NCBI GenBank assembly: GCA_020724555.1
Contig: DYGT01000001.1
Coordinates: 65,197 to 129,196 of the forward strand
Source of the DNA: Candidatus Microgenomatus sp.
GTDB lineage: Bacteria; Patescibacteriota; Microgenomatia; UBA8517
Direction: 5' to 3'
DNA: 64,000 nucleotides
Shown: piece after piece, positions 48 through 48,565 of the stretch
Numbering within the stretch: position 1 is the first letter of the stretch
How the letters are laid out: each line of letters starts with the position of its first letter
Position numbers and translations under genes: made by a program
The notes under the pieces: model-generated
Told to the model about the DNA's origin: nothing
The model's database searches: none
Seen by the model: only the letters and a program-made list of their open reading frames with translations

Positions 48-121
48 TACCAGGGGTGGGAGTCGAACCCACGACCTTCGGTTTATGAATCCGATGCTCT
101 AACCAACTGAGCTACCCTGGC
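48..121 (-). tRNA. tRNA-Met (anticodon CAT); could alternatively be the lysidine-modified Ile2 (CAU) species
   Basis: The reverse complement folds as a cloverleaf: GCCAGGG-TA-GCTC/AGTTGGTTA/GAGC-A-TCGGA/TTCATAA/ACCGA-AGGTC-GTGGG/TTCGACT/CCCAC-CCCTGGT-A. The pairs are G1.U72 wobble plus an A31.A39 mismatch. No CCA is encoded. Confidence 0.8.
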
Positions 122-224: not shown

Positions 225-294
225 TTGCGGAGCCGGGGGTTGAACCCGGCCTGCGAGATTATGAGCCTCGCGTGCAGCCGTACACTACTCCGCA
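225..294 (-). tRNA. tRNA-Met (anticodon CAT), short D-loop; either the elongator/initiator species or tRNA-Ile2(CAU)
   Basis: Reverse complement: TGCGGAG-TA-GTGT/ACGGCT/GCAC-G-CGAGG/CTCATAA/TCTCG-CAGG-CCGGG/TTCAACC/CCCGG-CTCCGCA-A. The acceptor stem is fully paired, the anticodon loop is CU-CAU-AA, and the length is 70 nt. Confidence 0.75.
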
Positions 295-945: not shown

Positions 946-1809
946 ATGTCAAACGAAACTTTTCACACACTTCTGCCTAAATTTATCGAGGATTTAGGAC
1001 AAAAAGGCCGGTCTCCCTCTACAATTCTAGCCTATAAAGCTGACCTTGAGCAGCTTGTCGATTACGCCACGCGCCACAGCAAATCCGAACCGGAACAAAT
1101 GGAGCCAACGGATATCGAAGCTTTCCGTGACTACCTTTTAACACAAAACTATACACCCAAAACAGTCTCGCGAAAACTTAATGCCATCAAAACTTTTTAT
1201 CGCTGGCTTATTGACGAAAAATTTATCACCCGCGACCCCTCAAAAGATGTAGGGCACCCAAAAATTGAATCATCTGTGCCAAAATTTTTATCACAGCTTG
1301 AATACCGGGCGCTTCGTGATGTAGTAAGAAGTGACCCCAGGATTGCCGCCATTATCGAGCTTATTCTTCAAACGGGCATGCGTATTTCGGAAGTAGCCAA
1401 CCTTAAGCGCTACAACATAGAAGAAGACCGTCTGACAATTGAAGCGCATGCTACCCAGCCCGGGCGCAAGGTGGAACTAAACGAAGCTGCGAGAAATGCC
1501 ATAAACGAATATCTGGAAGTGCGGCCTAAAGCTGAATCTGAATTTTTGTTTGTCAGCAAAAACGGCAAGCCACTGGCCGTTAGAAATATCCGAGCAGCCA
1601 TCGACCGCTATATGGAAAAAGCCGGTATGCCCCAATACTCAGTCAACGACATCCGCACAACTTTTATCGTCGAAAACTTAAAGCGTGGCGTCGATTTGGT
1701 AACGGTTTCACAAGCAGCTGGCCACAAACGCCTATCCACCACAGAGCGGTATTTGGAGCTCGCGGACATCAAAGAGCCCGGTAAAGAGCAAAAACTCGAA
1801 GAGCTTTAA
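946..1809 (+). CDS. Tyrosine site-specific recombinase/integrase (XerC/XerD-like)
   Basis: N-terminal SAM-like core-binding domain (AYKADLEQL...FRDYL). The C-terminal catalytic region carries the His-Arg motif and the catalytic Tyr (AGHKRLSTTERYLEL). The gene is flanked by tRNA genes. Confidence 0.8.
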   Translation: MSNETFHTLLPKFIEDLGQKGRSPSTILAYKADLEQLVDYATRHSKSEPEQMEPTDIEAFRDYLLTQNYTPKTVSRKLNAIKTFYRWLIDEKFITRDPSKDVGHPKIESSVPKFLSQLEYRALRDVVRSDPRIAAIIELILQTGMRISEVANLKRYNIEEDRLTIEAHATQPGRKVELNEAARNAINEYLEVRPKAESEFLFVSKNGKPLAVRNIRAAIDRYMEKAGMPQYSVNDIRTTFIVENLKRGVDLVTVSQAAGHKRLSTTERYLELADIKEPGKEQKLEEL

Positions 1810-1917
1810 ACTTCATATTAGTGGATGTACATCGGCGGTCTTGTGGGCCAGGATGGATTCAAACCATCGACTTCCAACTTACGTTAACTAATTGTTAACG
1901 CACCAAAATGGAGTTTG

Positions 1918-1990
1918 TGGATGTGCATGGATTTGAACCATGGACCCCCGACTTATAAGATCGGTGCTCTAACCGCTGAGCTACACATCC
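1918..1990 (-). tRNA. tRNA-Ile with anticodon TAT (UAU, reads AUA)
   Basis: Reverse complement: GGATGTG-TA-GCTC/AGCGGTTA/GAGC-A-CCGAT/CTTATAA/GTCGG-GGGTC-CATGG/TTCAAAT/CCATG-CACATCC-A. It is a perfect 73-nt cloverleaf with anticodon loop CU-UAU-AA. Confidence 0.75.
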
Positions 1991-2042
1991 ATTTTGGTGT
2001 AAGATTGACAGAGGTATAATATTTTACCAAACCGAAGCTATT

Positions 2043-4364
2043 TTATTTAAATTTATTCCTTCTGTCTATCTCTGCCTCAACTTGCCTTACGTCACGCCCA
2101 TATTTAAGCCTGCTCATTTCTTTTATTATCTCTGCCACTTTCGGGTTTCCTTTCTTCGCAATCTCGTTTAAATCCATAGTCAAATCCATACTAAACGGCG
2201 GCACAGGTTCGTTATTGACGATGGTTTTTATATAAACATTATAGCGCTCAATGTTTAACAAATCCTCCTCACTAAAAGTAGGAGCATATTCGTGCGTTAA
2301 ATAACTTGCATCATTAACACCCACACGGTAGGAAATCAAAGTACCCACGTTTCCGAAAACTGCGTTTTTAACTTCCTCGTCCACCTGACCAATAAACTGG
2401 TTTGCCACGGTCAGGCTTAACTTGTATTTTCGCGCTTCGGACAAAATTTGGGCAAAATCCGGTGTGGCAAAATTCTGAAACTCGTCAACATATAGATAAA
2501 AATTGCGCCTTTGCTCTTCCGGGATATCTGCCCGACTCATAGCAGCCATTAAGATTCTTGGTACTAAAACCAAGCCCAAAAAACTGCTGTTTTCTTCGCC
2601 AAGCTCTCCTTTGGAAAGATTAATCAGAAGAATCTTTCCCTCATCCATAACGCGTCTGAAGTCAAACGAAGAACGAGATTGCCCCACAATATTGCGGATA
2701 GTCCTATTGCCTACAAAGCGCCCGAATTTAGATACCGTATAATCCAATACTTCGGATTTGTGAAAATCTGAGGTTTGCGCAATCTGATCCTGCCAATAAC
2801 TCCTTACCATTGGATCATGAACATTAGGCAAGAGCTCACGTACAAAATCTGAATTAGTCATAACCCGCATCACTTCAATAAATGTGCCGCCTTCCATTCC
2901 TTGCATAACTGTGAGCATTGCATTTCGCACCCCATGTTCAAACCTGGGTCCCACTATCCCCGTTTTATAAGGATCAAAAAGCTTATACATCATATTAATA
3001 ACGGCTGTGGCTGCAAAATGCTGCTGGTCTTCATTTGCCGCTTCCAAAAGGTTTAAGCCCATGGGCCGCTCGGTATCAGAAGGACGAAAATAAATAACAT
3101 CTTCCACACGGCTTGGGGGCACAAAATTTAAAATATCTTCAACCGCGTCTCCGTGCGGATCCATAAAACAAAGACCATGACCGGCTTCAATATCTTGCCT
3201 AATCATAGATTTTAAAAACTCGCTTTTCCCAGTCCCTGTGCGGCCAATAATATACATATGTCTTTGCCGGTCCGACTCGGAAATAAACACATCCCTGGAA
3301 ACCCCACGGTAGTTGCTTTTCCCCAAAAAAAGTCCTTCCTGAGGAATTTGGGCCGGGGCAGGCGCGGTTTTTGCATTCAGCCAATAAATATGGGGCGTGG
3401 TAATTAATTTATTGGGAAAATGAAAAATGGTCGCCAATTCTTCACTATTTAAAATAGACACCCTACTGCCCAAACGAAACATAGGCTGATAACGGTAAAT
3501 AAAATTGGTTATAAAAGCAGATTTATTGCGAATTTTTTTGCTCCCCAAACTGTTAAGCTCACTATTAAACTGAGAAAAAGCGCTTGTAATATTGGATAAG
3601 TGAGCCTTCGCCATTTCTATGGTTTCAGACACAACTACAACGCGGATATTTGTATCAAATCCAGGTTTGCTTATTTTATTTTCTATCGCTTCCAGGGTTT
3701 TGGCAGGAACTGCGTATTTGGCTTTTTCCGGGTCGGCCTCCTGTTTTTTAGTTGAAGATATAAATGATTTACCTGCACCCTGCCAACTTGATTCAGCGGG
3801 TGATAATAAAATCTGCACAACCGCTGCTTCATCTTTACCCATTTTGGCCATGGCAGACGTTATGGATGCCAAAGGGTCTACCGGTAAATCTTTATAAGTT
3901 TTTAAGGGTAGATAGTTTTCTTTTTTCAGCTCAAGGGCTTTGTAAGCAACTTTACCGGTTTCGTTAAAAATGTTATATTCGTCAACAACACTAATTTTCG
4001 CATCAGGATAAGCCCCATGCACCTGTTTTTCTACCAAATCTCTTAAGGCACCCGTCGTCCAGATATAAAAACGAATGTCCTCAGAGCGGGCGACGATTTC
4101 AAAGGATATGACCGGCTGACTATCAAAACGCATTTTCCATCCGCCTTTTTTTATTGAATAAAGCGAGGCAAACAACTGCTCCATGGCATCAATTTTTATT
4201 TCATTGTTGCGCTGAACTGCAACCAACAACAAAATCCCATCCAAAGAGCGCTCTTCCCTTTTTCTGTTGCGGTAAAGAATAAAAAAATAGTATGCAAATA
4301 AAAAAAACAAAAAAAAGACTATTGTGCCGCCAACTAAAACTGGAATTAATAAATTAATATCCAT
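2043..4364 (-). CDS. virD4: Type IV secretion coupling protein-like ATPase (VirD4/TraD/TrwB family)
   Basis: N-terminal TM helix, then Walker A (IIGRTGTGKSEF) followed about 25 aa later by the TrwB/TraD-type CFMDPHGD motif. There is a Walker B-like YLYVDEFQNF further on. Start chosen at MDINLL (4364), 4 nt after the stop of the upstream ORF; the alternative start is 4397. Confidence 0.65.
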   Translation of the reverse strand: MDINLLIPVLVGGTIVFFLFFLFAYYFFILYRNRKREERSLDGILLLVAVQRNNEIKIDAMEQLFASLYSIKKGGWKMRFDSQPVISFEIVARSEDIRFYIWTTGALRDLVEKQVHGAYPDAKISVVDEYNIFNETGKVAYKALELKKENYLPLKTYKDLPVDPLASITSAMAKMGKDEAAVVQILLSPAESSWQGAGKSFISSTKKQEADPEKAKYAVPAKTLEAIENKISKPGFDTNIRVVVVSETIEMAKAHLSNITSAFSQFNSELNSLGSKKIRNKSAFITNFIYRYQPMFRLGSRVSILNSEELATIFHFPNKLITTPHIYWLNAKTAPAPAQIPQEGLFLGKSNYRGVSRDVFISESDRQRHMYIIGRTGTGKSEFLKSMIRQDIEAGHGLCFMDPHGDAVEDILNFVPPSRVEDVIYFRPSDTERPMGLNLLEAANEDQQHFAATAVINMMYKLFDPYKTGIVGPRFEHGVRNAMLTVMQGMEGGTFIEVMRVMTNSDFVRELLPNVHDPMVRSYWQDQIAQTSDFHKSEVLDYTVSKFGRFVGNRTIRNIVGQSRSSFDFRRVMDEGKILLINLSKGELGEENSSFLGLVLVPRILMAAMSRADIPEEQRRNFYLYVDEFQNFATPDFAQILSEARKYKLSLTVANQFIGQVDEEVKNAVFGNVGTLISYRVGVNDASYLTHEYAPTFSEEDLLNIERYNVYIKTIVNNEPVPPFSMDLTMDLNEIAKKGNPKVAEIIKEMSRLKYGRDVRQVEAEIDRRNKFK

Positions 4365-4368
4365 AAGT

Positions 4369-4704
4369 TTATTTTCCCACAACCGCTTGAAAACCACGCT
4401 TTAATGCCATATGTATCGCTCGAAGGATTGCCACACCGCTCCAAGTACGAGCTTCTGAATCTGAACCCTTTGACCAGGATTTTGCAGTTTTTTCGTCCGC
4501 CGGAACGACAACGATTTTTGCCGGATCCATATTGGCAACGGGATCTGTGGTCTTTGCAATAGTCCGCTTGTCATCAGTTATTGACTGTGCCTGAGCAGGG
4601 CGCGGTGTTATCCCCTGTTCTGCCATAGATTCGGTAACGTCAACAGTTTCCGGGGTAAACTGAATCTTATTGGGTTTGGTATTAATATTTTCGGGCGAGG
4701 ACAT
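4369..4704 (-). CDS. Hypothetical protein, translationally coupled to the coupling-protein gene
   Basis: 111-aa ORF whose stop lies 4 nt before the VirD4-like start. No recognisable domain. Confidence 0.35.
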   Translation of the reverse strand: MSSPENINTKPNKIQFTPETVDVTESMAEQGITPRPAQAQSITDDKRTIAKTTDPVANMDPAKIVVVPADEKTAKSWSKGSDSEARTWSGVAILRAIHMALKRGFQAVVGK

Positions 4705-5270: not shown

Positions 5271-7742
5271 TTAACATTCGCTGTGGCCGCAAACATAACA
5301 TTTTGAACACCCCTCCTCGTAAACCAAAGCACTTGCCCCGCAATTCGGGCAGATATCTGCTTTAACCACGCTTTCTTGTAAAAACATATTTTCTTGCGCA
5401 GCCGACACTTCAAGAAGTGGCTCTTGTTTGCTAAAACCGTTTGTATGGCCATTTTTTTGCGTATGTCCATTATCGACAGGAATCTCACCCACATCCTCTT
5501 TTAAATTAAGATGCGTAGATATAGCCACAGCTACGGCATCCGGAAGAGAACGTATACGATTGGCTCCAAAACCCACAGAACGCCGGCCGCCAATGCCAGA
5601 AAGCTGTTTAGCTATTTCAATTGCGCGCTCCCGCGGAGTTAAAGCCCCACGGAAACGGAGTGCGGTTGATACGGTCCTACCCAAAGCTTCTGCCACCGCA
5701 GTGATATCCGAGCCGGCTTTGCCGACGTTAATAAATATTTCTATTGGCTCTCCTTGGGCATTTTCATTAATAGTGATAAAGGCATTGCCCATAGGAGTAT
5801 TCATTTTGTAAGTTGCACCGGTTACTTTTAAAGGGCGCTCGAGCGTGGGTTCATAATTCTCCTCAGCTTCCTGTTTAGGCTTTTGGTCATTTTTTATGCC
5901 CATGTTTAAAACCTGCGCATCTTTACAGCCGTCACGAAAAACGGTAATGCCTTTACAATTATTTTCCCAGGCCAATAAATATGCATCTTTAATATCCTTG
6001 TCTGTCACGGAGTTGCGCATATTAATGGTTTTGCTGACTGCGTTTTCCGTATATTTTTGGAAAGCCGCTTGCATTTTTATATGCCAGTCGTGATGTATCT
6101 CATGTGCTGTACCAAATACGCGCCTCACTCCATCGGGAACCTCGGCTATATCTCTAACCGTTCCGTGTTCGCCAATTTTTCTTTCCAGTTCGGCGTTCCA
6201 AAACCCTTGCTTTTGAGCGATTTCTTTAAACTTCGGGTTTACAAAAGTAAGCGTACGCTCAAGGTGTTTATCTTTAACAATATGCTGGTAGGCTATCGCA
6301 AATATGGGCTCAATTCCGCTACTTGTACCGGCAATTATTGAAATTGTGCCGGTTGGCGCTATGGTAGTTACTGTAGAATTGCGCCGCGGCTTGTCATTTT
6401 TGTAGATACTTATCTCCCACAAAGGGAAAGCACCGCGCTCGCGAGCAAGCTTTTCGCTTTCCGCTACCGCTTCTTTTTGAATTACCTGCATAACTTTTTC
6501 ACCTAAATTCAAAGCTTCGCGCGAATCATAAGCAATCCCCAGATCAATTAACAAATCGGCCCACCCCCCAACACCCAGACCTATCCTTCTAATTGCCAAT
6601 GAGGTACGGCGGATCTGGTCCAAAGGGTACGGATTCATTTCTATAACATTGTCCATAAAACGCACTGCTTGCCTGGTTACTTTTTTAAGTTTATCCCAAT
6701 CAACATCTCGTCCTTCCTTTTTTTCAGTGACAAAATATGACAAAAATATCGAACCTAAATTACACGAATCAAACGGGTACAAAGGTTGTTCACCACAAGG
6801 ATTGGTGGATTCCACCGGACCTAAAGCGGGCACTGGATTCGCAGCACCTTCGTTCATTTTGTCTAAAAATACCAATCCCGGGTCACCCGTTTTCCAAGCG
6901 CTTTCGGCAATTTCATCAAAAATTTTTCTTGCGGACAAAGATCCTGCCACCTTTTTTGTTCTTGGATCTATAAGGTCATAATTTTCATCGTTTTTATAAG
7001 CTTCAATAAAATCGTTGGTTATGGCTACAGATATATTAAAATTAGTTATATCGCCCGTATCCTTGCAGTGGATAAACTCCTCAATATCGGGGTGATCAAC
7101 ACGTAAAATCCCCATGTTAGCTCCTCGCCTTTTGCCGCCTTGTTTTACTTCGTTGGTCGCGGCATCAAAAATCCGCATAAAAGAAACCGGGCCCGAAGCC
7201 GTACCGCTACTGCTTCTCACCATCGAACCTTTGGGCCGCAAACGGGAAAATGAAAAGCCCGTTCCCCCTCCACTTTTATGAATTAACGCCTGGTATTTAA
7301 GCGCATCAAAAATACCTTCTATCGAATCTTCTACAGGAAGGACAAAACAAGCTGAAAATTGAAGCATATTTCCGGTTCCGGCATTCATAAGAGTAGGAGA
7401 ATTCGGTAAAAATTCACGACTGACTAAAAGTTTGTAATATTCCTTGGCGTGGGCTACCACCTCGCGTTTTGTTTGTCCCCACAACGCCTCTGCCGAGGCA
7501 ATTTCCCAAGAAACTCTCCAGCACATATCTTCAGGCGTTTCGACAACCTCTCCTTTTTCATTTTTTTGTAAATACCTTTCCTCTAATACCTTTAAAGCCT
7601 GTTCTGTCCAATTCCCTTGAGGAAGGTTGTTAGGCAGAGGTGGAAGCTCACCGACTATTTTTATAATTTTGGCTTTATTTTCCTCGTAAGAAGCAAATTC
7701 TAAGTTTTCTAATGTAGGTATTTGTTTATTTTTTCTTGGCAT
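5271..7742 (-). CDS. nrdJ: Adenosylcobalamin-dependent ribonucleotide reductase (class II, NrdJ)
   Basis: 823 aa with the RNR active-site motif NPCGEQPL. There is no ATP cone. The C-terminal Cys cluster is CPNCG...CSKCYVCG. Co-operonic with nrdR and the adenosyltransferase. Confidence 0.85.
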   Translation of the reverse strand: MPRKNKQIPTLENLEFASYEENKAKIIKIVGELPPLPNNLPQGNWTEQALKVLEERYLQKNEKGEVVETPEDMCWRVSWEIASAEALWGQTKREVVAHAKEYYKLLVSREFLPNSPTLMNAGTGNMLQFSACFVLPVEDSIEGIFDALKYQALIHKSGGGTGFSFSRLRPKGSMVRSSSGTASGPVSFMRIFDAATNEVKQGGKRRGANMGILRVDHPDIEEFIHCKDTGDITNFNISVAITNDFIEAYKNDENYDLIDPRTKKVAGSLSARKIFDEIAESAWKTGDPGLVFLDKMNEGAANPVPALGPVESTNPCGEQPLYPFDSCNLGSIFLSYFVTEKKEGRDVDWDKLKKVTRQAVRFMDNVIEMNPYPLDQIRRTSLAIRRIGLGVGGWADLLIDLGIAYDSREALNLGEKVMQVIQKEAVAESEKLARERGAFPLWEISIYKNDKPRRNSTVTTIAPTGTISIIAGTSSGIEPIFAIAYQHIVKDKHLERTLTFVNPKFKEIAQKQGFWNAELERKIGEHGTVRDIAEVPDGVRRVFGTAHEIHHDWHIKMQAAFQKYTENAVSKTINMRNSVTDKDIKDAYLLAWENNCKGITVFRDGCKDAQVLNMGIKNDQKPKQEAEENYEPTLERPLKVTGATYKMNTPMGNAFITINENAQGEPIEIFINVGKAGSDITAVAEALGRTVSTALRFRGALTPRERAIEIAKQLSGIGGRRSVGFGANRIRSLPDAVAVAISTHLNLKEDVGEIPVDNGHTQKNGHTNGFSKQEPLLEVSAAQENMFLQESVVKADICPNCGASALVYEEGCSKCYVCGHSEC

Positions 7743-8186
7743 TTATTTACCTTCTATAGCTTTTTCAAAATCTGTCAAAACTTCAAATTCCAAATATACG
7801 CTGGCAAATCTCAACCAGGCTACTCTATCAACTTTTTTAAGTCTCTTCAAGACTGCAGAACCAATTTCTTTTGAAGATACTTCTTCACGCTCATGCCTAA
7901 GCATCTCCCGCTCTACCTGGTCAACTAATTCATTAACGTACTCCAAAGAAATCGGTCTTTTTTCTATGGCCCTTAATACTCCCCTTTTAATTTTTTCGCG
8001 ATCAAAGGGTTCCCGCCGACCGCTTTTTTTTACCACCCATAAAACACTGCCTTTTACCTTTTCGTAGGTGGTAAAGCGTTTCTTGCATTTACTGCATTTT
8101 CTCCGCCTTCTGACGGCATCACCCTCGTCAACCACGCGTGACTCCAGTACTTGTGTATCGATATTAGAACAAAAAGGACATTTCAT
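7743..8186 (-). CDS. nrdR: Transcriptional repressor NrdR
   Basis: MKCPFCSNIDTQVLESR...CSKCKKRFTTYE gives the zinc ribbon, and it is followed by an ATP-cone. Confidence 0.9.
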   Translation of the reverse strand: MKCPFCSNIDTQVLESRVVDEGDAVRRRRKCSKCKKRFTTYEKVKGSVLWVVKKSGRREPFDREKIKRGVLRAIEKRPISLEYVNELVDQVEREMLRHEREEVSSKEIGSAVLKRLKKVDRVAWLRFASVYLEFEVLTDFEKAIEGK

Positions 8187-8202
8187 GTATGAAACAAAAA
8201 AA

Positions 8203-8248
8203 CACTACTAACAGTGACAGTATTTATACTCTAACACTAAATGTAGTA
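8203..8248. promoter_or_regulatory. Two tandem NrdR-box-like palindromes with centres 32 bp apart, upstream of nrdR-nrdJ
   Basis: CACTACTAACAGTG at 8203-8216 is an inverted repeat CACT..AGTG. CACTAAATGTAGTA at 8235-8248 matches the NrdR-box consensus acaCwAtATaTwGtgt at about 10-11 of 14 positions. The 32-bp spacing is typical of tandem NrdR boxes. Confidence 0.45.
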
Positions 8249-8279
8249 TGTCAACCAGATAATAATCACTCAAACCATA

Positions 8280-8900
8280 TCAATTTTTAAAAGGGTTGGG
8301 TGGAGGGGTTTTTCCACTTTCATTTAATAGCTGTGTCGTTTTTTCGTAAACCATTCTTGCATAGTCGTTTATCTGATTAACAATTGGCTGAGCATCTTCC
8401 GGAGATGAACTGCGCAAATCTTCAAGCACTTGCCAGTGTTTTAGAGACGCAACAGCCAAAGTGTAGGCAAATTCTTCAACACTCACTCCCTCTTCCTTTG
8501 CCTTTATCATATAATTATAACTATTTTCTAAATACATTCCGGATTTTTTGGCAGCCGCTACTCCGCTTTCGTAATCCCCTTTGCGGTACATGACAATACT
8601 TGACCCAAGCCGTTTGTCTGCTAAAAGAAGCGACGCTTCGGCCTTACTCAATGAATTTTGTTTAAACAAAAGCAGTACTCTGTCGCGTACAACCTTTATC
8701 GGCCAAAGAATGCTATTGGGGTGAATATTCCCAGGATAAGGCAAATTATAATCAACTTTATTTATCACTTTTGTCGCAGTCACATTCGGCAAATACTGAA
8801 AATCGTACTGCAAAGATGAGGCTTTATAAACAGATGTGAACAAAATTGCCAAAGCAAAAAATAAAAAAACAGGTACGGCAATTATGCGGGCCATCAGCAA
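8280..8900 (-). CDS. Hypothetical secreted/membrane-anchored protein
   Basis: 206 aa with an N-terminal hydrophobic signal/anchor. No recognisable domain. Confidence 0.5.
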   Translation of the reverse strand: MLMARIIAVPVFLFFALAILFTSVYKASSLQYDFQYLPNVTATKVINKVDYNLPYPGNIHPNSILWPIKVVRDRVLLLFKQNSLSKAEASLLLADKRLGSSIVMYRKGDYESGVAAAKKSGMYLENSYNYMIKAKEEGVSVEEFAYTLAVASLKHWQVLEDLRSSSPEDAQPIVNQINDYARMVYEKTTQLLNESGKTPPPNPFKN

Positions 8901-8939
8901 TCAAATGCTAAACCATAAAACCCACACAGTCAACCTAAA

Positions 8940-9593
8940 CTAGCGGAACAATATAATAGGCCACTGCCATAAAAAATTAAGAAGAATTGCTGAAAAAACA
9001 TTTTTTGTGCGCGCAAACACAAACGACGCACCTATAGAATAGACAAATACCAATGCAGCATATAAAACTAAATTGCCCAAGTTAAATTTCCAATCCAAGA
9101 TAGCAATTGGCAAATGAATCAGCACCCAGCCCAGAGCGGTCACAAAATTCGCTCTCCATTCGCTCTTGATCACGCTCCAAAGCCGGGAGAAAATAAAACC
9201 ACGAAAAACCAACTCTTCCACCACAGCCGTAGACAAAGAAACGGCAATTAAAAGAAAAAAAGAACTTTCTCCTAAATTGGCATAAAATTCTACCGAACCG
9301 TACTTTAAATAGTTGACAATAAGACCTTCAAGCGAAAAAACAGCACCTAAAACAATTGCCAAATAAATTGTAGGGAAAAAATTTTTTTGTGTAATTCCGA
9401 TTGAAGACACAGATGATTGTTCTTTTTTCAAAAGATATACCATGGGACCTAGCCAAATAACGGGTTTGATTATAAATTCTTCAAGGCTTTCGGGAAGCTG
9501 AAAAAGCAAACGGTAAAAACCCCAAACCAACAGCAAAAAAGCATATAAACCCACTGTGTGTTTTAGTTTGACGATTGCTGTTTTTTCCGGCAT
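8940..9593 (-). CDS. CPBP family intramembrane metalloprotease (CAAX protease/Abi family)
   Basis: Multi-TM protein carrying the EELVFRG motif (EExxxR) and a downstream His motif, both characteristic of CPBP/Abi proteases. Confidence 0.7.
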   Translation of the reverse strand: MPEKTAIVKLKHTVGLYAFLLLVWGFYRLLFQLPESLEEFIIKPVIWLGPMVYLLKKEQSSVSSIGITQKNFFPTIYLAIVLGAVFSLEGLIVNYLKYGSVEFYANLGESSFFLLIAVSLSTAVVEELVFRGFIFSRLWSVIKSEWRANFVTALGWVLIHLPIAILDWKFNLGNLVLYAALVFVYSIGASFVFARTKNVFSAILLNFLWQWPIILFR

Positions 9594-10097
9594 CTAATAT
9601 TTTAATTGTACACTACATTCGCCAAAGACCTCATCAATTGCCACGATTACCATTTCGATTCTTTTTTCAGCTTCCACAAGATCTATGGCATTTTGTTCAT
9701 TGGGGAACCAATGGGTAACTAAATTGCGTGAATTTTTCCAAGTCTGCCATAATTTTTGGGGAAGCGCTTCGCCTTTACAAAACTTGGTCAAATCATCGTA
9801 AACCCAATCGTTGTCCCGAAATCTTGGATCCAAAGTAGGATTAAGGGATTTTCCAATACGAAAGTGTTTGCCGTAGTAGTCATCTTTGCTAATAAAACCC
9901 ATGTCCAAAAAAAGCTTTTTTAAAAACCCCTCATAAGCTTTGGCTGCCGGAAAAACCACAAAAGAATAATCATGAAACGATTGGTCCCACTCTTTTGTCC
10001 GAACCAAAAGCACCAAAGACTCAGATAAAAGCTCCTGCAAATCCCGCTCAAGATACATCCACCACTTTTTTTGTCTTAAATCTTCAAGTTTAATCAT
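9594..10097 (-). CDS. Hypothetical cytoplasmic protein, possible HEPN-like (Rx4H motif)
   Basis: 167 aa and all-alpha-looking. It contains SRNLVTHW, which fits the Rx4-6H HEPN motif. Its stop abuts the CPBP protease start. Confidence 0.4.
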   Translation of the reverse strand: MIKLEDLRQKKWWMYLERDLQELLSESLVLLVRTKEWDQSFHDYSFVVFPAAKAYEGFLKKLFLDMGFISKDDYYGKHFRIGKSLNPTLDPRFRDNDWVYDDLTKFCKGEALPQKLWQTWKNSRNLVTHWFPNEQNAIDLVEAEKRIEMVIVAIDEVFGECSVQLKY

Positions 10098-10126
10098 AAT
10101 TTCTTTATAGAGTATAATCTATCAAC

Positions 10127-12409
10127 ATGGCAGGTAAAAAATCAAGCAAAAAAGGCATTAACAAACCAAAAAAGGATTTTAGAAATAGGTTTTATCGTAT
10201 AGACAAATTCAGTCGGAAAATTAAAATCTTCATACTTATTTTACTGGCTCTTTTCGGCTTTGGTGTCTGGTTGTTTTGGGATTTGCCAATATCAACAAAT
10301 ATCACCGATATCCCGGCAGTTTCCACCAAAATTTTCGACAGGAATGGAAAATTAATTTATGAAATTTACGCCGATCAGCGCCGAACACCGCTGACACTTA
10401 GTGAAATCCCGGAACATGTTAAAGAAGCAACAATAGCCATAGAAGATAAAGATTTTTACAAGCACAGCGGTTTTGATATTATGGGTATGATCCGCGGACT
10501 TTCCCGCCAGTTTACCCGCGGACGCGCCGAAGGAGGCTCCACCCTTACACAGCAGTTAGTTAAAAATGCCCTCTTAACTCCGGAGCGGACAGTTAGGCGG
10601 AAACTTCGCGAATTTGTATTAGCTGCCTTGGTGGAAATACGTTATTCCAAAGACACAATTTTGGAAACCTATTTAAACCAAATTCCCTATGGCTCAACCG
10701 CTTATGGCATTGGCTCAGCAAGCGAACTTTACTTTGGCAAAAGTGCAAAAGAGCTGGACCTTGCAGAGGCCGCCCTTTTAGCCGGACTTACTGCAGCGCC
10801 TACGCGTTACTCCCCTTATGGGTCACACCCTGAACTTGCAAAAGAGCGACAAAAGCAAGTACTCAGGCGCATGGTAGAAGACGGCTATATCAGCCAGGAG
10901 GAGGCGGATGAAGCCGCAAACAAAGAACTTAAATTTAAAAAACAAGAAAACCTCAAAGCTCCTCATTTTGCTTTATGGGTTAAAGAAACTCTAGCAGAAA
11001 AATACGGAGATGCCCTGGTAGAACAAGGCGGGCTCAGGGTTACCACAACGCTGGATTTGGATCTTCAGGAATTTGCCCAAGAGGTTGTGCGTGAAGAAGT
11101 GGAAAAACTTGCCGATCAAGACGTAGGCAATGGAGCTGCACTCGTCACACGCCCCGACACAGGTGAGGTTCTGGCTATGGTAGGGTCAAAAGACTATTTT
11201 GCCGAAGACGAGGACGGCAAAGTCAATATCCTTTTTGCCTTACGGCAACCAGGAAGTTCTATCAAGCCGCTGAACTACGCCCTTGGTATCCGCGATAAAA
11301 AAATTACCGCCAGCACTCCTCTGGCTGACATACCAACTTGTTTTATTGTAGCCGGACAACAACCTTACTGCCCCAGAAATTACGACGGAGGGTTTCATGG
11401 CGCTACACAAGTTCGCTTTGCTCTAGGAAACTCATACAACATTCCGGCAGTCCGCGTATTGGCCTTAAATGGTGTTGACAATTTTATTAACTTTGCAAAA
11501 GAGATGGGAATTACAACTTTTAACGATCCTTCCCAATATGGCCTTTCATTAACTTTGGGCGGGGGCGAAGTGCGCCCGGTAGACATGGCCGTTGCTTTTG
11601 GTGTCTTTGCCAATGAAGGGGTTAAGCAACCATTGCTATCTATCTCTAAAATCGAGGATTGGAAAGGCAAAGTCCTCTTTGAGCTCGATCGGGAAAGTAT
11701 TGATGGAGATCGCGTGCTAGACCCTGCTGTAACTTTTATTATTTCCCACATCCTTCATGACAACAATGCCCGAGTCGCAGCTTTTGGCGTTAATTCTTTT
11801 TTGCGTGTCACTGGCCACCCGGAAGTGTCTGTAAAAACCGGAACTACCAATGACAGACGTGATAACTGGACAATTGGCTACACCAAACACGCCCTTGTCG
11901 TTTCGTGGGTGGGAAACAACGATAACACGCCCATGAGCGGAGCCGTATCCGGAGTGTCGGGCGCTTCTCCCATTTGGAATGCCATCATAAAAGAAGTATT
12001 AAATAAAGCCGAAGACGGAGTATATGGAAGTGATTTCAAAGGCCATGCATGGCCAAAACAACCAAACAATGTTATAGGTGCAAACGTTTGTGCAAACACC
12101 GGCGCCCTACCGGGAAACGAACTCTCAGACTGTCCTACCCGATATGAATATTTTTTGGAAAATACTGTGCCGGCTTCCAATCTTAGGCGTGAAGACATAT
12201 TTATCGATCGCGAAAAGCAAGAGCTGGCCACCCAAGAAACACCACAAGACAAAATAGAAACACAAAATCATATAGTAATATCTGACCCATTAGGAACAAA
12301 AATTTGTCTGACGTGCCCATTTCCCATGCCGAGCGTTACTGTAAACTATCCTTTATCTGGTATTACGAATATTTCCGCACCCTCCAACAAAGAATCTGTT
12401 AATCAGTAA
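10127..12409 (+). CDS. Class A penicillin-binding protein (PBP1A family: glycosyltransferase plus transpeptidase)
   Basis: N-terminal TM. GT51 motifs EDKDFYKHSGFD and GGSTLTQQLVKN. Transpeptidase SxxK motif RQPGSSIKP and the KTGT motif. Confidence 0.85.
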   Translation: MAGKKSSKKGINKPKKDFRNRFYRIDKFSRKIKIFILILLALFGFGVWLFWDLPISTNITDIPAVSTKIFDRNGKLIYEIYADQRRTPLTLSEIPEHVKEATIAIEDKDFYKHSGFDIMGMIRGLSRQFTRGRAEGGSTLTQQLVKNALLTPERTVRRKLREFVLAALVEIRYSKDTILETYLNQIPYGSTAYGIGSASELYFGKSAKELDLAEAALLAGLTAAPTRYSPYGSHPELAKERQKQVLRRMVEDGYISQEEADEAANKELKFKKQENLKAPHFALWVKETLAEKYGDALVEQGGLRVTTTLDLDLQEFAQEVVREEVEKLADQDVGNGAALVTRPDTGEVLAMVGSKDYFAEDEDGKVNILFALRQPGSSIKPLNYALGIRDKKITASTPLADIPTCFIVAGQQPYCPRNYDGGFHGATQVRFALGNSYNIPAVRVLALNGVDNFINFAKEMGITTFNDPSQYGLSLTLGGGEVRPVDMAVAFGVFANEGVKQPLLSISKIEDWKGKVLFELDRESIDGDRVLDPAVTFIISHILHDNNARVAAFGVNSFLRVTGHPEVSVKTGTTNDRRDNWTIGYTKHALVVSWVGNNDNTPMSGAVSGVSGASPIWNAIIKEVLNKAEDGVYGSDFKGHAWPKQPNNVIGANVCANTGALPGNELSDCPTRYEYFLENTVPASNLRREDIFIDREKQELATQETPQDKIETQNHIVISDPLGTKICLTCPFPMPSVTVNYPLSGITNISAPSNKESVNQ

Positions 12410-31173: not shown

Positions 31174-31575
31174 TTAGTTAGCTTTTTTCTCATGAAATTT
31201 TTTAAGCTTAATATCAAAAGTTGCAAGCTTTGCCCAAGCTTTTTTCGTAAGACAACTCAAATATATATCCACCAAAGTCAAGCTTTTATTTGAAGAGTAT
31301 AAATCCAAAGCGCAAAAAAGTTCCTTTTTATTAATTGTTTTTATATATTTTTCTTCAAGAAGCACCCGCATATTATCGGCGATATCTGCTCTATCAACCT
31401 TATAGAGCTTTTCTAAAACAAACACCACCTCAAATAAAACCTGCGGAATAAGTCTGACCGTCTGCTTTTTATCTTTTGCTTCTAAAAAAAGTTTCCGAGC
31501 CTTTGCGTAATAAGTCTTATTGTCATTCAAAAGAAACCTTAAAATAACATTTGTATCAACAAAAACTTCACTCAC
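31174..31575 (-). CDS. vapC: PIN-domain toxin (VapC-like)
   Basis: N-terminal VFVDTNVIL PIN signature. Overlaps the upstream antitoxin gene. Confidence 0.75.
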   Translation of the reverse strand: MSEVFVDTNVILRFLLNDNKTYYAKARKLFLEAKDKKQTVRLIPQVLFEVVFVLEKLYKVDRADIADNMRVLLEEKYIKTINKKELFCALDLYSSNKSLTLVDIYLSCLTKKAWAKLATFDIKLKKFHEKKAN

Positions 31576-31834
31576 TCAACATACCTTTCTCTATTGCCTT
31601 TTCCTCAAGGGCCAAAACATCATTTATAGATTTATTTTTTAAGGCTTTAGACTGAAATACTCCTGCTAAAGAAGCTATATCTTTGTGAGGTAATACCAAA
31701 ATGGATTTACCTTTTCTTTGCACTTTTACTTTTGCACCAACGGAAAGCCCAACAACATCTCTTACCTGCTTGGGGATAGTGACCTGTCCTTTTTGTGTAA
31801 TGGTGGTTACAAAGTCCATAAGTAATACTAACAT
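31568..31834 (-). CDS. vapB: AbrB/MazE/SpoVT-type antitoxin (VapB-like)
   Basis: ITQKGQVTIPKQVRDVVGL swapped-hairpin motif. The 8-nt overlap with the PIN gene is typical of toxin-antitoxin pairs. Confidence 0.7.
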   Translation of the reverse strand: MLVLLMDFVTTITQKGQVTIPKQVRDVVGLSVGAKVKVQRKGKSILVLPHKDIASLAGVFQSKALKNKSINDVLALEEKAIEKGMLSE

Positions 31835-36189: not shown

Positions 36190-37209
36190 ATGAATATTTT
36201 AGCCATTGAAACCAGCTGTGACGAAACCGGGGCTGCGGTCATAAAAAACGGAAATACCATTCTGTCCAACGTAGTTGCCACATCCCAAGCGCTTCACGCC
36301 AAAACAGGCGGCATAATCCCGGAAACCGCCGCACGACAGCAGCTCTCCTCGATTCACCCGGTAATTGATGAGGCAATGACATTCGCTCAAGTAACAAAAA
36401 ATGATATCGACGCAATTGCGGTGACTATCGGTCCGGGATTAATTGGTTCTCTTCTTGTTGGCGTGGAAACCGCCAAAACTTTAAGTTATTTATGGAAAAA
36501 GCCGCTTATTCCTGTAAACCATTTGCTTGGCCATGTTTACGCAAATTTTATAAATAACTCACCAAAATTTCCCGCCATAGCATTGGTTGTATCAGGCGGA
36601 CACACAGACATGATTTATTTAGAAGGCCACCCGATAACTGCAAAAGTAAAACTCCTGGGCAGCACCCAAGACGACGCCGCCGGAGAAGCTTTTGATAAAA
36701 TCGCACGACTTTTGGGGTTGCCCTACCCCGGAGGACCAAAATTGGCGCAAATGGCCGATGTCTATCTTAAAAATAACCCCCAAGTAAAGCTGGATCTTTT
36801 CCCCAGACCACTTTTTAATTCTAATGATTTTAATTTCAGCTTTTCCGGGCTTAAAACAGCGGTAAGAAATTATCTAAAAAATGTCCCGGACGCAGACAAA
36901 TCGTTTGTGGCCGCCCAGGTCCAAGCTGCAGTTGTCGATGTAATTGTTAAAAAATCAACCTTTGCTTTAGAAAAATATAGGCCTTCATCTTTTTTGCTTG
37001 CGGGCGGAGTAGCAGCCAATAATATGCTTCGGAAAAATTTGGGCTATAGTATTGAGAATATAGGGAGGTCTAGCCAGTTGCACATACCTCTAGTAAATTT
37101 GTGCACGGATAACGCAGCTTATATTGGGGTATGCGCTTTTTATAACTACAGGCCATATTCTTGGAAAAAAATTGCCGCCAATCCGGAGCTTACAATCGTT
37201 GAGCTTTAA
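36190..37209 (+). CDS. tsaD: tRNA N6-adenosine threonylcarbamoyltransferase TsaD (Kae1/YgjD)
   Basis: N-terminal ILAIETSCDETGAAV signature. Confidence 0.9.
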   Translation: MNILAIETSCDETGAAVIKNGNTILSNVVATSQALHAKTGGIIPETAARQQLSSIHPVIDEAMTFAQVTKNDIDAIAVTIGPGLIGSLLVGVETAKTLSYLWKKPLIPVNHLLGHVYANFINNSPKFPAIALVVSGGHTDMIYLEGHPITAKVKLLGSTQDDAAGEAFDKIARLLGLPYPGGPKLAQMADVYLKNNPQVKLDLFPRPLFNSNDFNFSFSGLKTAVRNYLKNVPDADKSFVAAQVQAAVVDVIVKKSTFALEKYRPSSFLLAGGVAANNMLRKNLGYSIENIGRSSQLHIPLVNLCTDNAAYIGVCAFYNYRPYSWKKIAANPELTIVEL

Positions 37210-37228
37210 ACTCCTACCCGCTATACTT

Positions 37229-39340
37229 ATGCCAATGGAAAAACAATATAACCACATAAAATACGAGGCGGGAATTTATGCATTGTGGGAAAAAGCAAAT
37301 GCATTTGCTCCGCAAGAAGTAAACAAAAAAAATTTAAAAAAATCTAAAAAATCATTTTCTATTATCATGCCCCCGCCCAATGCCAATGAAGATTTACACA
37401 TCGGACACGCTCGTTTTGTGGCTATTGAAGACATCCTCATTCGCCACGCCCGAATGAAGGGTTTAGCCACTTTATGGTTGCCCGGAGCAGACCATGCAGG
37501 CATTGAAACTCAGTATGTTTTTGAAAAAAAATTAAAAGAACAAGGAAAAAGCCGCTTTGATTATGAACGCGAAGATTTGTATAAAATGCTTTGGGATTAT
37601 GTCCATAAATATAAAGACAGTATGTACGACCAACTTAAAAGATTGGGCGCCTCCTGCGACTGGAGCCGTGAAAAATTTACCTTAGACCCCGAAATCATCG
37701 CGATCGTAAAACAAACATTTAAGTCTTTATACGACGAAGGCATGGTTTACAGAGATGAACAATTGGTTAATTATTGCCCCAATTGCGGCACTTCATTTTC
37801 AGAACTTGAGATAGATTATGTGGAACGAGATGACCTTATGTATTATCTTGACTACGGGACCGTTACCATCGCAACCACAAGGCCTGAAACCATTTTTGCA
37901 GACGTTGCCATAGCTGTTAACCCCCAGGACAGCAGGTATAAAAAACTGATAGGTAAAAAGGCTACCATTCCTTTAATTAACAGACAGATCCCGATAATTA
38001 AAGACTCCGCGGTTGACAAAAAACTAGGAACTGGAGCTTTAAAAGTAACACCGGCACACGACCCGACCGACTTTGAAATAAGAAAAAGACACAATCTCCC
38101 AACCGTATCCGTAATCGACAGTGAAGGTAAAATGATAAATACCCCACCGGAATACATAGGCTTGCGCGTGGCAGATGCACGTCGAAAAGTTGTTTCTATG
38201 CTTAAAGACCGGGGTGTTCTTATAAAAGAAGTGCCAATCCGCCATGCTGTTGCTACGTGTTATAAATGCAAAAACACAATCGAACCCATGATCTCAAAAC
38301 AGTGGTTTATAAAGGTTAAACCACTTACTAAAGACGCACTTTTAGCAATACGAAAAAAACAAGTAAAATTTGCAAAAGATAAATATAAAAAGATTGCCGT
38401 TCACTGGCTTAAAAATTTGAAAGACTGGAATATTAGCCGGCAAATAGTATGGGGAATCCAAATACCTGCCTGGAGATGTGATCAATGCATGGAGTGGGTT
38501 GTAACAGCAGGGGAAACTCCAAACAAGTGCCCTAATTGCAAAGCCAGCTCTTTTACACAGGAAACCGACACCTTTGACACCTGGTTTAGCTCGAGCCAAT
38601 GGCCATTTGCTACCCTAATGACAACGGGAAAAAATGACTTTAAGCGCTTTTATCCCACTTCTGTTATGGAAACCGCTTATGATATTTTACCTTTTTGGGT
38701 GATTAGAATGATCATGCTTGGTTTATATAAAACTAAAAATGTGCCTTTTAATAACGTCCTTATCCACGGCCTTGTCCGCGACAAAAATGGCCAAAAAATT
38801 AGCAAATCCAAAGGTAATGTTATAAATCCCTTGGTTATGGTAGACAAATATGGGGCGGACGCCTTGCGTATGGGATTAATATGGGGGACTCTCATAGAAA
38901 ACGATATTTCTCTTTCAGAAGAAAACATCCGCGGACAAAGAAACTTTGCCAATAAGCTTTGGAATGTCGCGCGTTTTGTATCACTCAACCAAAGCCAACT
39001 AAAAGCTATGTCGCGCGCTCCCCGTTCCCAAAACAAAAACGACCACGCTATTATTAAAAAGCTTCGCCGCACTGCTAAAATTATTGATAAAGAAATAGAA
39101 AACTACCGACTGAACCAAGCCGCAGAAAACCTTTACAATTTCATTTGGAAGGATTTTGCCAATGATTATTTAGAATCAACAAAATCCCGCCGCAGCAAAG
39201 CCCAACCCACCCTGGAATATATCCTTTCTGAGTCTATAAAAATGGCCCACCCGTTTATGCCGTTTATAACCGAAGCTATTTGGCAAAACCTATACGGAAA
39301 CTCACAAAAGCCGTTAATTTTTCAGTCCTGGCCCAAATGA
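37229..39340 (+). CDS. valS: Valine--tRNA ligase (short form lacking the C-terminal coiled coil)
   Basis: HIGH region PPPNANEDLHIGHA, KMSKS as KISKSKGNVI, and the ValRS-type WFSSSQWPF. Start chosen at MPMEKQ (37229); the track ORF starts at 37124 and overlaps tsaD. Confidence 0.8.
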   Translation: MPMEKQYNHIKYEAGIYALWEKANAFAPQEVNKKNLKKSKKSFSIIMPPPNANEDLHIGHARFVAIEDILIRHARMKGLATLWLPGADHAGIETQYVFEKKLKEQGKSRFDYEREDLYKMLWDYVHKYKDSMYDQLKRLGASCDWSREKFTLDPEIIAIVKQTFKSLYDEGMVYRDEQLVNYCPNCGTSFSELEIDYVERDDLMYYLDYGTVTIATTRPETIFADVAIAVNPQDSRYKKLIGKKATIPLINRQIPIIKDSAVDKKLGTGALKVTPAHDPTDFEIRKRHNLPTVSVIDSEGKMINTPPEYIGLRVADARRKVVSMLKDRGVLIKEVPIRHAVATCYKCKNTIEPMISKQWFIKVKPLTKDALLAIRKKQVKFAKDKYKKIAVHWLKNLKDWNISRQIVWGIQIPAWRCDQCMEWVVTAGETPNKCPNCKASSFTQETDTFDTWFSSSQWPFATLMTTGKNDFKRFYPTSVMETAYDILPFWVIRMIMLGLYKTKNVPFNNVLIHGLVRDKNGQKISKSKGNVINPLVMVDKYGADALRMGLIWGTLIENDISLSEENIRGQRNFANKLWNVARFVSLNQSQLKAMSRAPRSQNKNDHAIIKKLRRTAKIIDKEIENYRLNQAAENLYNFIWKDFANDYLESTKSRRSKAQPTLEYILSESIKMAHPFMPFITEAIWQNLYGNSQKPLIFQSWPK

Positions 39341-46026: not shown

Positions 46027-46251
46027 TTATTTAAACGGGACCGGGTCGTAGCCACCTTTGGCAAACGGGTGGCAACGCAATATGCGTTTAACCGACAAAA
46101 ACCCACCTTTAAGAATACCATGTTTGGCAATGGCTTCGTTTGCATAGACTGAGCAAGTTGGCGTATACCTGCAGCCCTTTCCAAACAACAAAAACAAAAG
46201 GGGGGACAATGTTAATTTATAAATTTTTAATAATAAATTATTCATTTGCAA
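46027..46251 (-). CDS. yidD: Membrane protein insertion efficiency factor YidD
   Basis: YKLTLSPLL...[12 protein letters not shown] signature. Confidence 0.85.
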
Positions 46252-46586
46252 ATTCTACAGCTTACCAAAGCATCCATTAATTGATTCATAATATCTGAGG
46301 TATAAACCTTGGCAATAGATGGGAAGGCAACAATTACCACATCGTATGCGTTTTCCATACAATATAAACTTCTTCTTATTCCTTCTCGAATGGCTCTTTT
46401 CGTCTTATTACGAACACTTGCGTGAGGACTTATGTCTTTATCAACAATAATTCCAAAACGGGAATTTTTTTGGTTTTTTTTAACAACGTACTGAATTAAA
46501 AAATGTTCAGTTTTGTATCTTTTGCCTTTATTTTTTACAAACAAAAAATCTTCCTGTTCTGTTAAACGGTTTTTTCGCGGCAGCAT
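46242..46586 (-). CDS. rnpA: Ribonuclease P protein component
   Basis: RnpA-like basic protein in the conserved position after rpmH. Confidence 0.8.
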
Positions 46587-48327: not shown

Positions 48328-48565
48328 TTTGTTTATAAATCACCCGCTTATCCACATATAAACAAAAATAACTATATCCTCCACAAATTTATCAACAAAA
48401 GTTTCAAGGCAACAATCTACAATTCCACTAGCGCTTATAGCCAGCGTAATATTCTACTTATCCACACGGCCTACTGCTACTACTACTGTATTAAATAAAT
48501 AAATTATATAAAACAAAAAAATATGACTTGTGAATAATCGGCGATGTCATATAATGCATATAAAT
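48328..48565. promoter_or_regulatory. oriC candidate: DnaA-box cluster plus an AT-rich unwinding region between dnaA and dnaN
   Basis: Perfect TTATCCACA at 48348-48356 and 48458-48466. One-mismatch boxes TTATCAACA at 48389-48397 and TGTGAATAA (reverse) at 48529-48537. AT-rich tract at 48490-48525. Confidence 0.65.

Follow-up and report, generated by a model that had tools for sequence, protein, structure and literature searches.

The 64,000-nt stretch of Candidatus Microgenomatus sp. analyzed here (assembly GCA_020724555.1, contig DYGT01000001.1; "the window" below) carries a tRNA-Ile gene whose anticodon, UAU, is written in the DNA itself. The reading that we consider probable is that this is a vertically inherited, functional chromosomal gene that reads AUA and stands in for tRNA-Ile2(CAU) together with its modifying enzyme, TilS. 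The region read comprises the window plus 6.3 kb to its left and 10 kb to its right, ∼80 kb of a ∼0.9-Mb genome.

ARAGORN returned three tRNA genes in the window, all on the minus strand: Ile(tat) at 1917–1990, and two with the anticodon cat at 224–294 and 47–121. The Rfam tRNA model RF00005 spans 1918–1990 end to end with 72.7 bits (gathering score 29), an E-value of 5.5e-14 and 0 non-canonical pairs; beyond these three tRNAs, the window contains no further Rfam match at or above a gathering score. Read directly, the 5′ half is GGAUGUG-UA-GCUC-AGCGGUUA-GAGC-A-CCGAU-CUUAUAA-GUCGG and the part after the anticodon arm is GGGUC-CAUGG-UUCAAAU-CCAUG-CACAUCC-A, which give an acceptor stem GGAUGUG/CACAUCC, a D stem GCUC/GAGC, an anticodon arm CCGAU-CUUAUAA-GUCGG, a T arm CAUGG-UUCAAAU-CCAUG and discriminator A73. 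The anticodon consists of U34 (1957), A35 (1956) and U36 (1955), in a loop running from 1959 to 1953. The 73-nt cloverleaf with loop CUUAUAA described in a first-pass annotation of this DNA is thus borne out by ARAGORN (which returned both the TAT anticodon and the fold), by the full-length Rfam match and by direct reading. CCA is absent from the gene, which CAA directly follows, and the sequence is 92% identical to that of the syntenic gene in Ca. Woesebacteria Ch104b.

Such genes prove to be widespread among the relatives of this organism. A pattern scan over one genome per GTDB species gave at least 120 matches; among those listed, ARAGORN called 107 of 120 as tRNA-Ile(tat), and at least 54 of these 107 lie in genomes named as members of the candidate phyla radiation (CPR, Patescibacteria). 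The CPR groups represented are Parcubacteria/Paceibacterota, Woese-, Levy-, Shapiro-, Dojka-/WS6, Saccharibacteria, Peri-/Peregrinibacteria, Magasanik-, Kuenen-, Falkow-, Buchanan-, Morani- and Jorgensenbacteria. The other matches listed include Planctomycetota tRNA arrays, Ignavibacteria, Dormiibacterota, DPANN archaea and Streptomyces plasmids. The first-pass annotation had called bacterial UAU tRNA-Ile genes rare, which holds for the published literature, where they are described as "rare cases" and counts of bacterial exceptions run to nine species without tilS, 19 species with TAT genes and, in tRNAscan-SE 2.0, 17 genomes with a bacterial UAU tRNA-Ile; it fails for the window's own lineage, given the CPR count above. 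Our literature search returned no mention of lysidine, of AUA with isoleucine, of AUA decoding or of TilS in connection with CPR or Patescibacteria, and UAU-based AUA decoding is apparently undescribed for this group. Viral contigs from IMG/VR (L252–L257; 40–370 kb, two of them >300 kb) also carry tRNA arrays with a tRNA-Ile(UAU) that is similar to the CPR type in its T arm and acceptor end. A metagenome scan for C34/G34 twins (AGAGCNCCGANCTSATAANTCGGNNGTC) gave unrelated CAU tRNAs among the matches listed, and is uninformative on a C-to-T origin.

The tRNA-Ile(UAU) cloverleaf is under selection across the CPR. In an alignment of 45 distinct CPR tRNA(UAU) sequences, collected with a search pattern that fixed the D arm and anticodon loop only, standard pairs occupy 98.9% of pair cells, and 15 pairs show both-sided changes, including all 12 of the acceptor and anticodon stems. 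The covariation score is 0.705, as compared to 0.168 for shuffled data and at most 0.13 with partners slid. Close relatives of the window's gene already show compensatory changes (e.g. GGAUGCG/CGCAUCC and GGGUGUG/CACACCC). As for identity, the gene has A73, A37, A38, U12–A23 and the isoleucine-type pair A3–U70. Among CAU tRNAs, G3 or A3 with C70 or U70 marks tRNA-Ile, while C3–G70 marks Met and fMet (Silva et al. 2006, PMC1635315); for the 54 CPR UAU tRNAs among the matches listed, position 3:70 is G–C or A–U in 51, A73 is present in 50 and C4–G69 in 33. One locus of the Parcubacteria has a tRNA-Ile(GAU) adjoining the UAU tRNA, and the two share 81% identity. Two relatives have a tRNA(UAU) with a very atypical body at the orthologous site (L262, 12371–12445; L264, 12356–12428), with T8–C9, D stems ATTT/ATAT or GTTC/GGAC, and an A/T-rich anticodon stem.

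This organism uses AUA as a sense codon, with the meaning isoleucine. It accounts for 459 of the 20,446 codons in 58 open reading frames (22.4 per 1000), or 30% of isoleucine codons, and is used even in GroEL. When eight conserved proteins are compared with their E. coli orthologues, AUA sites face I in 32%, V in 28% and M in 5% of cases; this is the profile of AUU/AUC, while AUG differs, facing M in 29%. We assign AUA to isoleucine because its sites align like those of AUU/AUC and unlike those of AUG; its reassignment to methionine is ruled out by alignment to I/V/L instead of M. The claim of the first-pass annotation that the gene is a tRNA-Ile decoding AUA accordingly finds support in the UAU anticodon with A37, A38 and A73, in the A3–U70 pair, in the heavy usage of AUA and its alignment with I/V/L, and in covariation across the CPR.

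The two CAU tRNAs had been placed ∼1.6 kb upstream of the gene. The distance is right (1.6–1.9 kb), but on the tRNA's own minus strand they lie downstream, and the recombinase gene and divIC separate both from tRNA-Ile(UAU). Of the two identities suggested for them, an elongator and initiator tRNA-Met pair agrees with their acceptor and D-stem features and with CPR orthologues, while the option that one is tRNA-Ile2 fell away, as neither has an Ile2-type acceptor signature. The tRNA at 225–294 has the acceptor stem UGCGGAG/CUCCGCA-A, like the bacterial initiator type (xGCGGxG), and G12–C23, an fMet discriminator (Silva et al. 2006, PMC1635315). Initiator tRNA-fMet is otherwise recognized by a 1×72 mismatch, by A11:U24 alongside G12:C23, and by three G–C pairs at 29–31/39–41; this gene has U1–A72 instead of the mismatch, U11–A24, and G30–C40 alone of the three G–C pairs (A29–U41, G31·U39). 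Its orthologues from L070, L029, L061, L084 and L116 have C1×A72. The non-canonical features are kept in Woesebacteria-like relatives, and Dojkabacteria orthologues retain C1×A72 and A11. Promoter and terminator scans give this gene its own promoter-like site (332 to 305) and terminator-like hairpin (217 to 190), both on the minus strand. The tRNA at 48–121 has C3–G70, A4–U69 and G5–C68 with an elongator D stem GCUC/GAGC, and is therefore tRNA-Met; the same three pairs rule it out as tRNA-Ile2, which has G3 or A3 with C70 or U70, often with C4–G69 and C5–G68 (Silva et al. 2006, PMC1635315). The Ile2 signature was likewise seen in 0 of 24 CAU tRNAs near the UAU tRNAs of other loci. With one CAU tRNA of initiator type, the other Met, and no Ile2 signature, the cluster therefore most likely comprises Ile(UAU), fMet and Met. 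The G1·U72 pair and the A31×A39 mismatch of the tRNA-Met, which leaves a 4-bp anticodon stem, recur in relatives; 4-bp anticodon stems have been reported in 27% of bacterial tRNA-Met genes (a 2026 paper in Nucleic Acids Research).

The window and flanks contain no TilS-like or PP-loop (SGGxDS) protein, no third CAU tRNA and no isoleucyl-tRNA synthetase (IleRS). Searches by tblastn of the window, flanks and 120 genome loci found no TilS with the E. coli TilS query and, with E. coli IleRS, one true IleRS, which is archaeal, the other matches being valyl-tRNA synthetase (ValRS). In Firmicutes and Mollicutes, tilS adjoins ftsH (Silva et al. 2006, PMC1635315). The gene order in Bacillus subtilis is tilS-hprT-ftsH, and ftsH has tilS as its neighbor in many other bacteria as well. 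Upstream of ftsH, the window's organism has trpS and a tRNA_bind gene instead of tilS, as do four close relatives (L074, L262–L264), and none of the 14 UAU-bearing CPR loci that include ftsH has a PF01171 protein upstream of it or a tblastn TilS match. In 8 of these 14 (L003, L020, L038, L048, L055, L067, L077 and L082), the UAU tRNA itself lies 20–300 nt downstream of ftsH; the loci with this arrangement are of Parcubacteria and Saccharibacteria type. The cultured Saccharibacterium Southlakia epibionticum presents the other state: its annotation table places TilS (SEML1_0730) directly upstream of FtsH (0729), with three "tRNA-Met" genes (0733, 0739, 0741) around divIC (0740) and one tRNA-Ile, and lists neither MnmE nor MnmG; TilS was essential in two of three transposon sequencing (Tn-seq) analyses. 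The conserved block thus holds either TilS with three CAU tRNAs, or no TilS with two CAU tRNAs and one UAU tRNA. We therefore read these alternative contents as a probable replacement, and the UAU tRNA as the likely substitute for tRNA-Ile2(CAU) and TilS in the window's organism. The absence of TilS implied in the first-pass annotation is thus supported indirectly.

The setting of the gene is that of an ordinary chromosome, of a Woesebacteria-like CPR/Patescibacteria bacterium, rather than a phage or plasmid. The window includes dnaA and dnaN (46948–49669), with a change in GC skew nearby, and also encodes rnpA, yidC, groES/EL, glycolytic and pentose-phosphate genes, two penicillin-binding proteins, ValRS, TsaD, a class II ribonucleotide reductase with nrdR, a type-IV-secretion-like cluster and the CPR-typical domains DUF5667, DUF4012 and DUF8128; G+C content is even along it. 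The nearest named genome is the complete Candidatus Woesebacteria Ch104b (CP055307.1), whose VirD4-like protein is 79% identical; homologues of this window protein carry the NCBI name Woesebacteria, and near-identical contigs are found in several public metagenome assemblies. Features discussed here are collected in Table 1.

Table 1. Positions of the tRNA genes, the flanking scar and related features (window coordinates unless a locus is named)
Feature	Position	Strand	Basis
tRNA-Ile, genomic UAU anticodon, 73 nt	1918..1990	minus	ARAGORN, Rfam, covariation
Promoter-like site TAGACA-17-TAAAAT, ∼50 nt upstream of tRNA-Ile	2040..2068	minus	Consensus scan, 10/12; consensus match only
Leader CACCAAAAT, complementary to trailer	1991..1999	minus	Complement scan
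Trailer TCCATTTTGGTG, complementary to leader plus first 3 nt of the tRNA	1912 to 1901 (part of 1882..1912)	minus	Leader/trailer complement scan
7-bp hairpin CGTTAAC-AATTA-GTTAACG	1900 to 1882	minus	Direct reading
3′-half relic of another tRNA-Ile(UAU) gene, from nt 36 to the discriminator, acceptor strand CUGGCCC	1843..1881	minus	Local alignment
12-nt direct repeat of the intact gene's 3′ end (ATGTACATCCAC vs ATGCACATCCAC)	1821..1832	minus	Repeat search, family D12
Nested layout in other CPR loci	L082 ∼3990–4270; L014 ∼6650–6950; L030 ∼1180–1400; L103 ∼2270–2520		
Initiator-type tRNA(CAU), non-canonical anticodon stem	225..294	minus	Rfam, 47.1 bits
Elongator tRNA-Met(CAU), G1·U72, A31×A39 mismatch	48..121	minus	Rfam, 71.4 bits
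Xer-like tyrosine recombinase, 287 aa, convergent with tRNA-Ile	946..1809	plus	Pfam Phage_integrase and SAM-like domains
VirD4-like/DUF8128 ATPase, directly upstream of tRNA-Ile	2043..4397	minus	Pfam, NCBIfam, PF26449 (precomputed annotation)
TsaD, t6A37 catalytic subunit	36190..37209	plus	TIGR03723, 368 bits, above cut-off
RNase P protein (tRNA 5′ maturation)	46242..46586	minus	Pfam Ribonuclease_P

With the left-extending contig L130 included, the order on the tRNA strand is VirD4-like/DUF8128 ATPase, tRNA-Ile(UAU), Xer-like recombinase (convergent), divIC, tRNA-fMet, tRNA-Met, trpS, the tRNA_bind protein and ftsH; Ch104b and many other CPR loci share the block. A VirD4-like gene adjoins tRNA-Ile(tat) in 17 CPR loci, and also in L262–L264, and a Xer-like recombinase gene lies next to it in 14 CPR loci (39–74% identity); all three together recur, with protein identities of 39–79%, in Woese-, Levy- and Dojkabacteria, as well as in some loci labelled Saccharibacteria. 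Relatives can also be picked via the VirD4-like protein, independent of the anticodon, and tRNA(tat) was then present at the site in 3 of 3 (L262–L264); this search took in relatives of at least 69% identity among the best 120. For the window's lineage, tRNA-Ile(UAU) is the rule. Several metagenome-assembled genomes titled "uncultured Gammaproteobacteria" (L016, L053, L070, L120 and others) have the same CPR block, with a VirD4-like protein of 57–68% identity and tRNA-Ile(UAU), and in L016, L053 and L070 also the Xer-like gene; these titles look like mislabels. The XerA, XerC and XerD models match the recombinase below their cut-offs. We also considered an integron integrase or attC, and rejected the idea (TIGR02249 64.9 bits against a cut-off of 265; 287 aa; generic Xer models best).

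Immediately 3′ of the gene, the minus strand reads from the intact tRNA (1990 to 1918) through CAAAC, TCCATTTTGGTG, a hairpin and a 39-nt half-tRNA, followed by 10 nt, a 12-nt repeat, 11 nt and the recombinase stop codon. The half-tRNA aligns with a score of 53, as compared to a maximum of 31 in 200 shuffles, and is identical at 34 of 39 positions to the tRNA-Ile(tat) of L119, another Patescibacterium; Ile(tat) makes up 38 of its 40 best matches among 321 tRNAs, and its partial match to the Rfam tRNA model is weak. In the sister strains L130 and L131, a C at 1861 restores the canonical T loop GGUUCGAAUCC in the relic, and the 12-nt repeat is exact (12/12; at 1829 they differ from the window by a single nucleotide). 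The repeat and the 3′ end of the intact gene bracket an 84-nt insert; given the exact copy in the sister strains, we take the two as direct repeats of the resident 3′ end on either side of an insert that contains a foreign half-tRNA.

Tyrosine integrases target tRNA genes at the anticodon loop or the 3′ end. Judged by its sequence, the scar appears to be a remnant of the footprint classically left in a tRNA gene by site-specific integration. It shares with tRNA attachment sites the direct repeat of the 3′ end, the displaced half-tRNA, the nearby tyrosine recombinase and the variable cargo in relatives: at the same spot, Ch104b (306 nt) and L007 have unrelated spacers, and L262 and L264 have inserts of 0.8–1.5 kb with TPR-protein genes between tRNA(UAU) and the recombinase gene. 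It differs from them in that only an 84-nt remnant is present and in that the recombinase gene is resident and conserved, unlike obvious island cargo; nor are the inverted repeat that encloses the intact tRNA and the hairpin that precedes the half-tRNA standard att features. Four CPR loci (Table 1) have a nested layout of 5′ half-tRNA, inverted-repeat arm, intact tRNA, complementary arm and 3′ half-tRNA; the 3′ half begins at nt 33–36, and in L082 and L014 a hairpin precedes it. Comparable leader/trailer complementarity next to the gene was found in 0 of 9 un-nested UAU genes, two of which have scattered 7–8-nt A/T runs. Integration scars, a small non-autonomous replacement-tRNA cassette, or an IS200/IS605-like element with subterminal hairpins are all possible sources of the inverted repeat and hairpin. 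A search of viral contigs with the relic for attP gave solely complete tRNA-Ile(UAU) genes in large-phage tRNA arrays.

Under the account we propose, tRNA-Ile(UAU) would be transcribed on its own, trimmed by RNase P and a 3′ nuclease, and given its CCA; it would most likely carry t6A37, the modification expected on a tRNA with U36–A37, and would then be charged by IleRS. Abundant AUA would be read through ordinary U34:A pairing, and the neighboring initiator and elongator Met tRNAs would serve AUG. The charging by IleRS, the modification state of U34 and the rejection of AUG are modelled on Mycoplasma mobile, and tilS would have been lost from the window's organism.

Several points weigh against this account. 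The region read is a small part of the genome, and the remainder may contain tilS and a third CAU tRNA; both systems coexist in some bacteria, e.g. Lactobacillus casei and L. plantarum; at least one CPR bacterium, Southlakia, has TilS, and the comparison with it rests on an annotation table, not on sequence; the E. coli isoleucine identity pairs C4–G69 and C29–G41 are U4–A69 and G29–C41 in this tRNA; and its charging by IleRS is presumed by analogy. The main rival is that the UAU tRNA is functional but redundant, alongside tilS and tRNA-Ile2(CAU) outside the region read. Taniguchi et al. (PMC3575796) proposed coexistence of this kind as a transition state, bacteria with both systems exist, the TilS of the cultured CPR bacterium was essential in two of three Tn-seq analyses, and the inspected share of the genome is only ∼9%. 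We nevertheless hold redundancy to be rather unlikely, as tilS is absent from its conserved place upstream of ftsH in this organism and in all 14 of the UAU-bearing CPR loci with ftsH, and as the AUN tRNA cluster has exactly two CAU tRNAs, classed as fMet and Met, where the TilS-bearing Saccharibacterium has three in the equivalent block.

The flanking tyrosine recombinase and coupling-protein-like ATPase, the foreign half-tRNA and direct repeat just downstream, and the occurrence of UAU tRNAs in jumbo-phage tRNA arrays and Streptomyces plasmids could suggest instead that the gene is cargo recently brought by an integrative or conjugative element and stands outside the core translation set. 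This we think very unlikely: the order of the block is conserved across CPR classes at 39–79% protein identity, the window has an even G+C content, core genes (ribonucleotide reductase, divIC, trpS, ftsH) flank the tRNA, and the intact stems match those of vertical relatives (GGAUGYG/CRCAUCC), while the relic's stems do not. Still more improbable, in our judgment, is that the gene does not decode isoleucine, being either defunct (a pseudogene) or of a different identity, such as a tRNA charged with Met with AUA reassigned. The two E. coli identity pairs that are not kept and the very atypical D arm of the L262 and L264 gene at the orthologous site would fit that idea, but the high Rfam score with no mismatched pairs, the strong covariation, the alignment of AUA with I/V/L rather than M, and a frequency of AUA too high for it to go undecoded all speak for an isoleucine tRNA.

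Of known systems, the nearest to the proposed isoleucine-decoding gene is tRNA-Ile2(UAU) of Mycoplasma mobile, with which it shares a genomic UAU, frequent AUA and a reduced genome (Taniguchi et al. 2013, PMC3575796; Silva et al. 2006, PMC1635315), as well as the missing tilS beside ftsH, the kind of evidence used by Silva et al. (PMC1635315). M. mobile belongs to the Tenericutes rather than the CPR, and the present locus is conserved across several CPR classes, which points to an old state rather than a single-species event. Unmodified U34, the IleRS Arg865 adaptation and ribosomal discrimination of AUA from AUG have been shown in M. mobile itself. Adaptation of an IleRS to UAU is recognized by Arg or Lys at the position of E. 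coli W905, or by a type-2 enzyme. In the present system no tested defining feature failed, and by analogy the tRNA would work like AUA decoding in that species. Bifidobacterium and Neorickettsia likewise have a UAU tRNA-Ile (tRNA-Ile3(UAU) in tRNAscan-SE 2.0) in place of tRNA-Ile2(CAU), a case explained by a horizontally acquired eukaryote-type (type-2) IleRS. Like the canonical tRNA-Ile2(CAU) made by TilS (with lysidine or ava2C), of which Southlakia is a CPR example, the tRNA reads AUA as isoleucine and has a purine at 3 and a pyrimidine at 70, and C4–G69 and C5–G68 are frequent among CPR UAU tRNAs; it differs in that the DNA anticodon is TAT, not CAT, and with T rather than C there, lysidine is therefore neither needed nor possible. 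Nanoarchaeum equitans and Korarchaeum cryptofilum are also reduced, ultra-small lineages with a UAU tRNA instead of a modified CAU tRNA, but they (like the DPANN archaea of the pattern scan) belong to another domain, and the system replaced there is TiaS with agmatidine.

Taken singly, the gene is a real and expected part of this organism's translation system, and it matters mainly for the lineage-wide pattern that it points to. We tentatively suggest, as a possibility that falls somewhat short of probable, that U34-based AUA reading without lysidine is the ancient normal state of much of the CPR, and that the tRNA gene is a hot spot of recurrent, structured recombination, with a so far undescribed layout in which an inverted repeat encloses the intact gene and is followed by a hairpin and by a half-tRNA that starts at the anticodon; Southlakia would belong to a minority that kept TilS and the third CAU tRNA in the same block. 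Accounts of how bacteria solve the AUA/AUG problem usually name TilS and lysidine, and TilS passes for an essential, near-universal enzyme. If the suggestion is true, the CPR would be the largest bacterial group without TilS, and annotation and completeness estimates would be affected insofar as TilS serves as a near-universal marker. Models of AUA-box evolution would have to adapt (compare the ancestral UAU state proposed by Taniguchi), and it would become more pressing to ask how ribosomes keep a U34 tRNA from reading AUG.

Some further features of the region may be of use to others. The class I synthetase gene at 37124–39340 (plus strand) was considered as IleRS and rejected, since profile matches identify ValRS; its 738-aa product stops at about position 700 of the 860-position models, without the usual C-terminal part. 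A type-IV-secretion-like cluster (VirB4/TraG-like, PrgI-like and TraC-like) occupies 50385–63982 and continues at 6412–10327 of the right-hand contig L124, followed by at least seven tandem T4SS_pilin paralogues; its 499-, 561-, 838- and 1253-aa proteins have no Pfam match. Toxin–antitoxin-like genes lie at 9594–10097 (HEPN/RnlA-like) and at 31174–31834 (a PIN and MazE-type pair adjoining groES). A tmRNA gene (L124, 951–1338) adjoins smpB ∼9 kb past the right end of the window, and its predicted tag is DDDYSYTPKQGFAYAYA.

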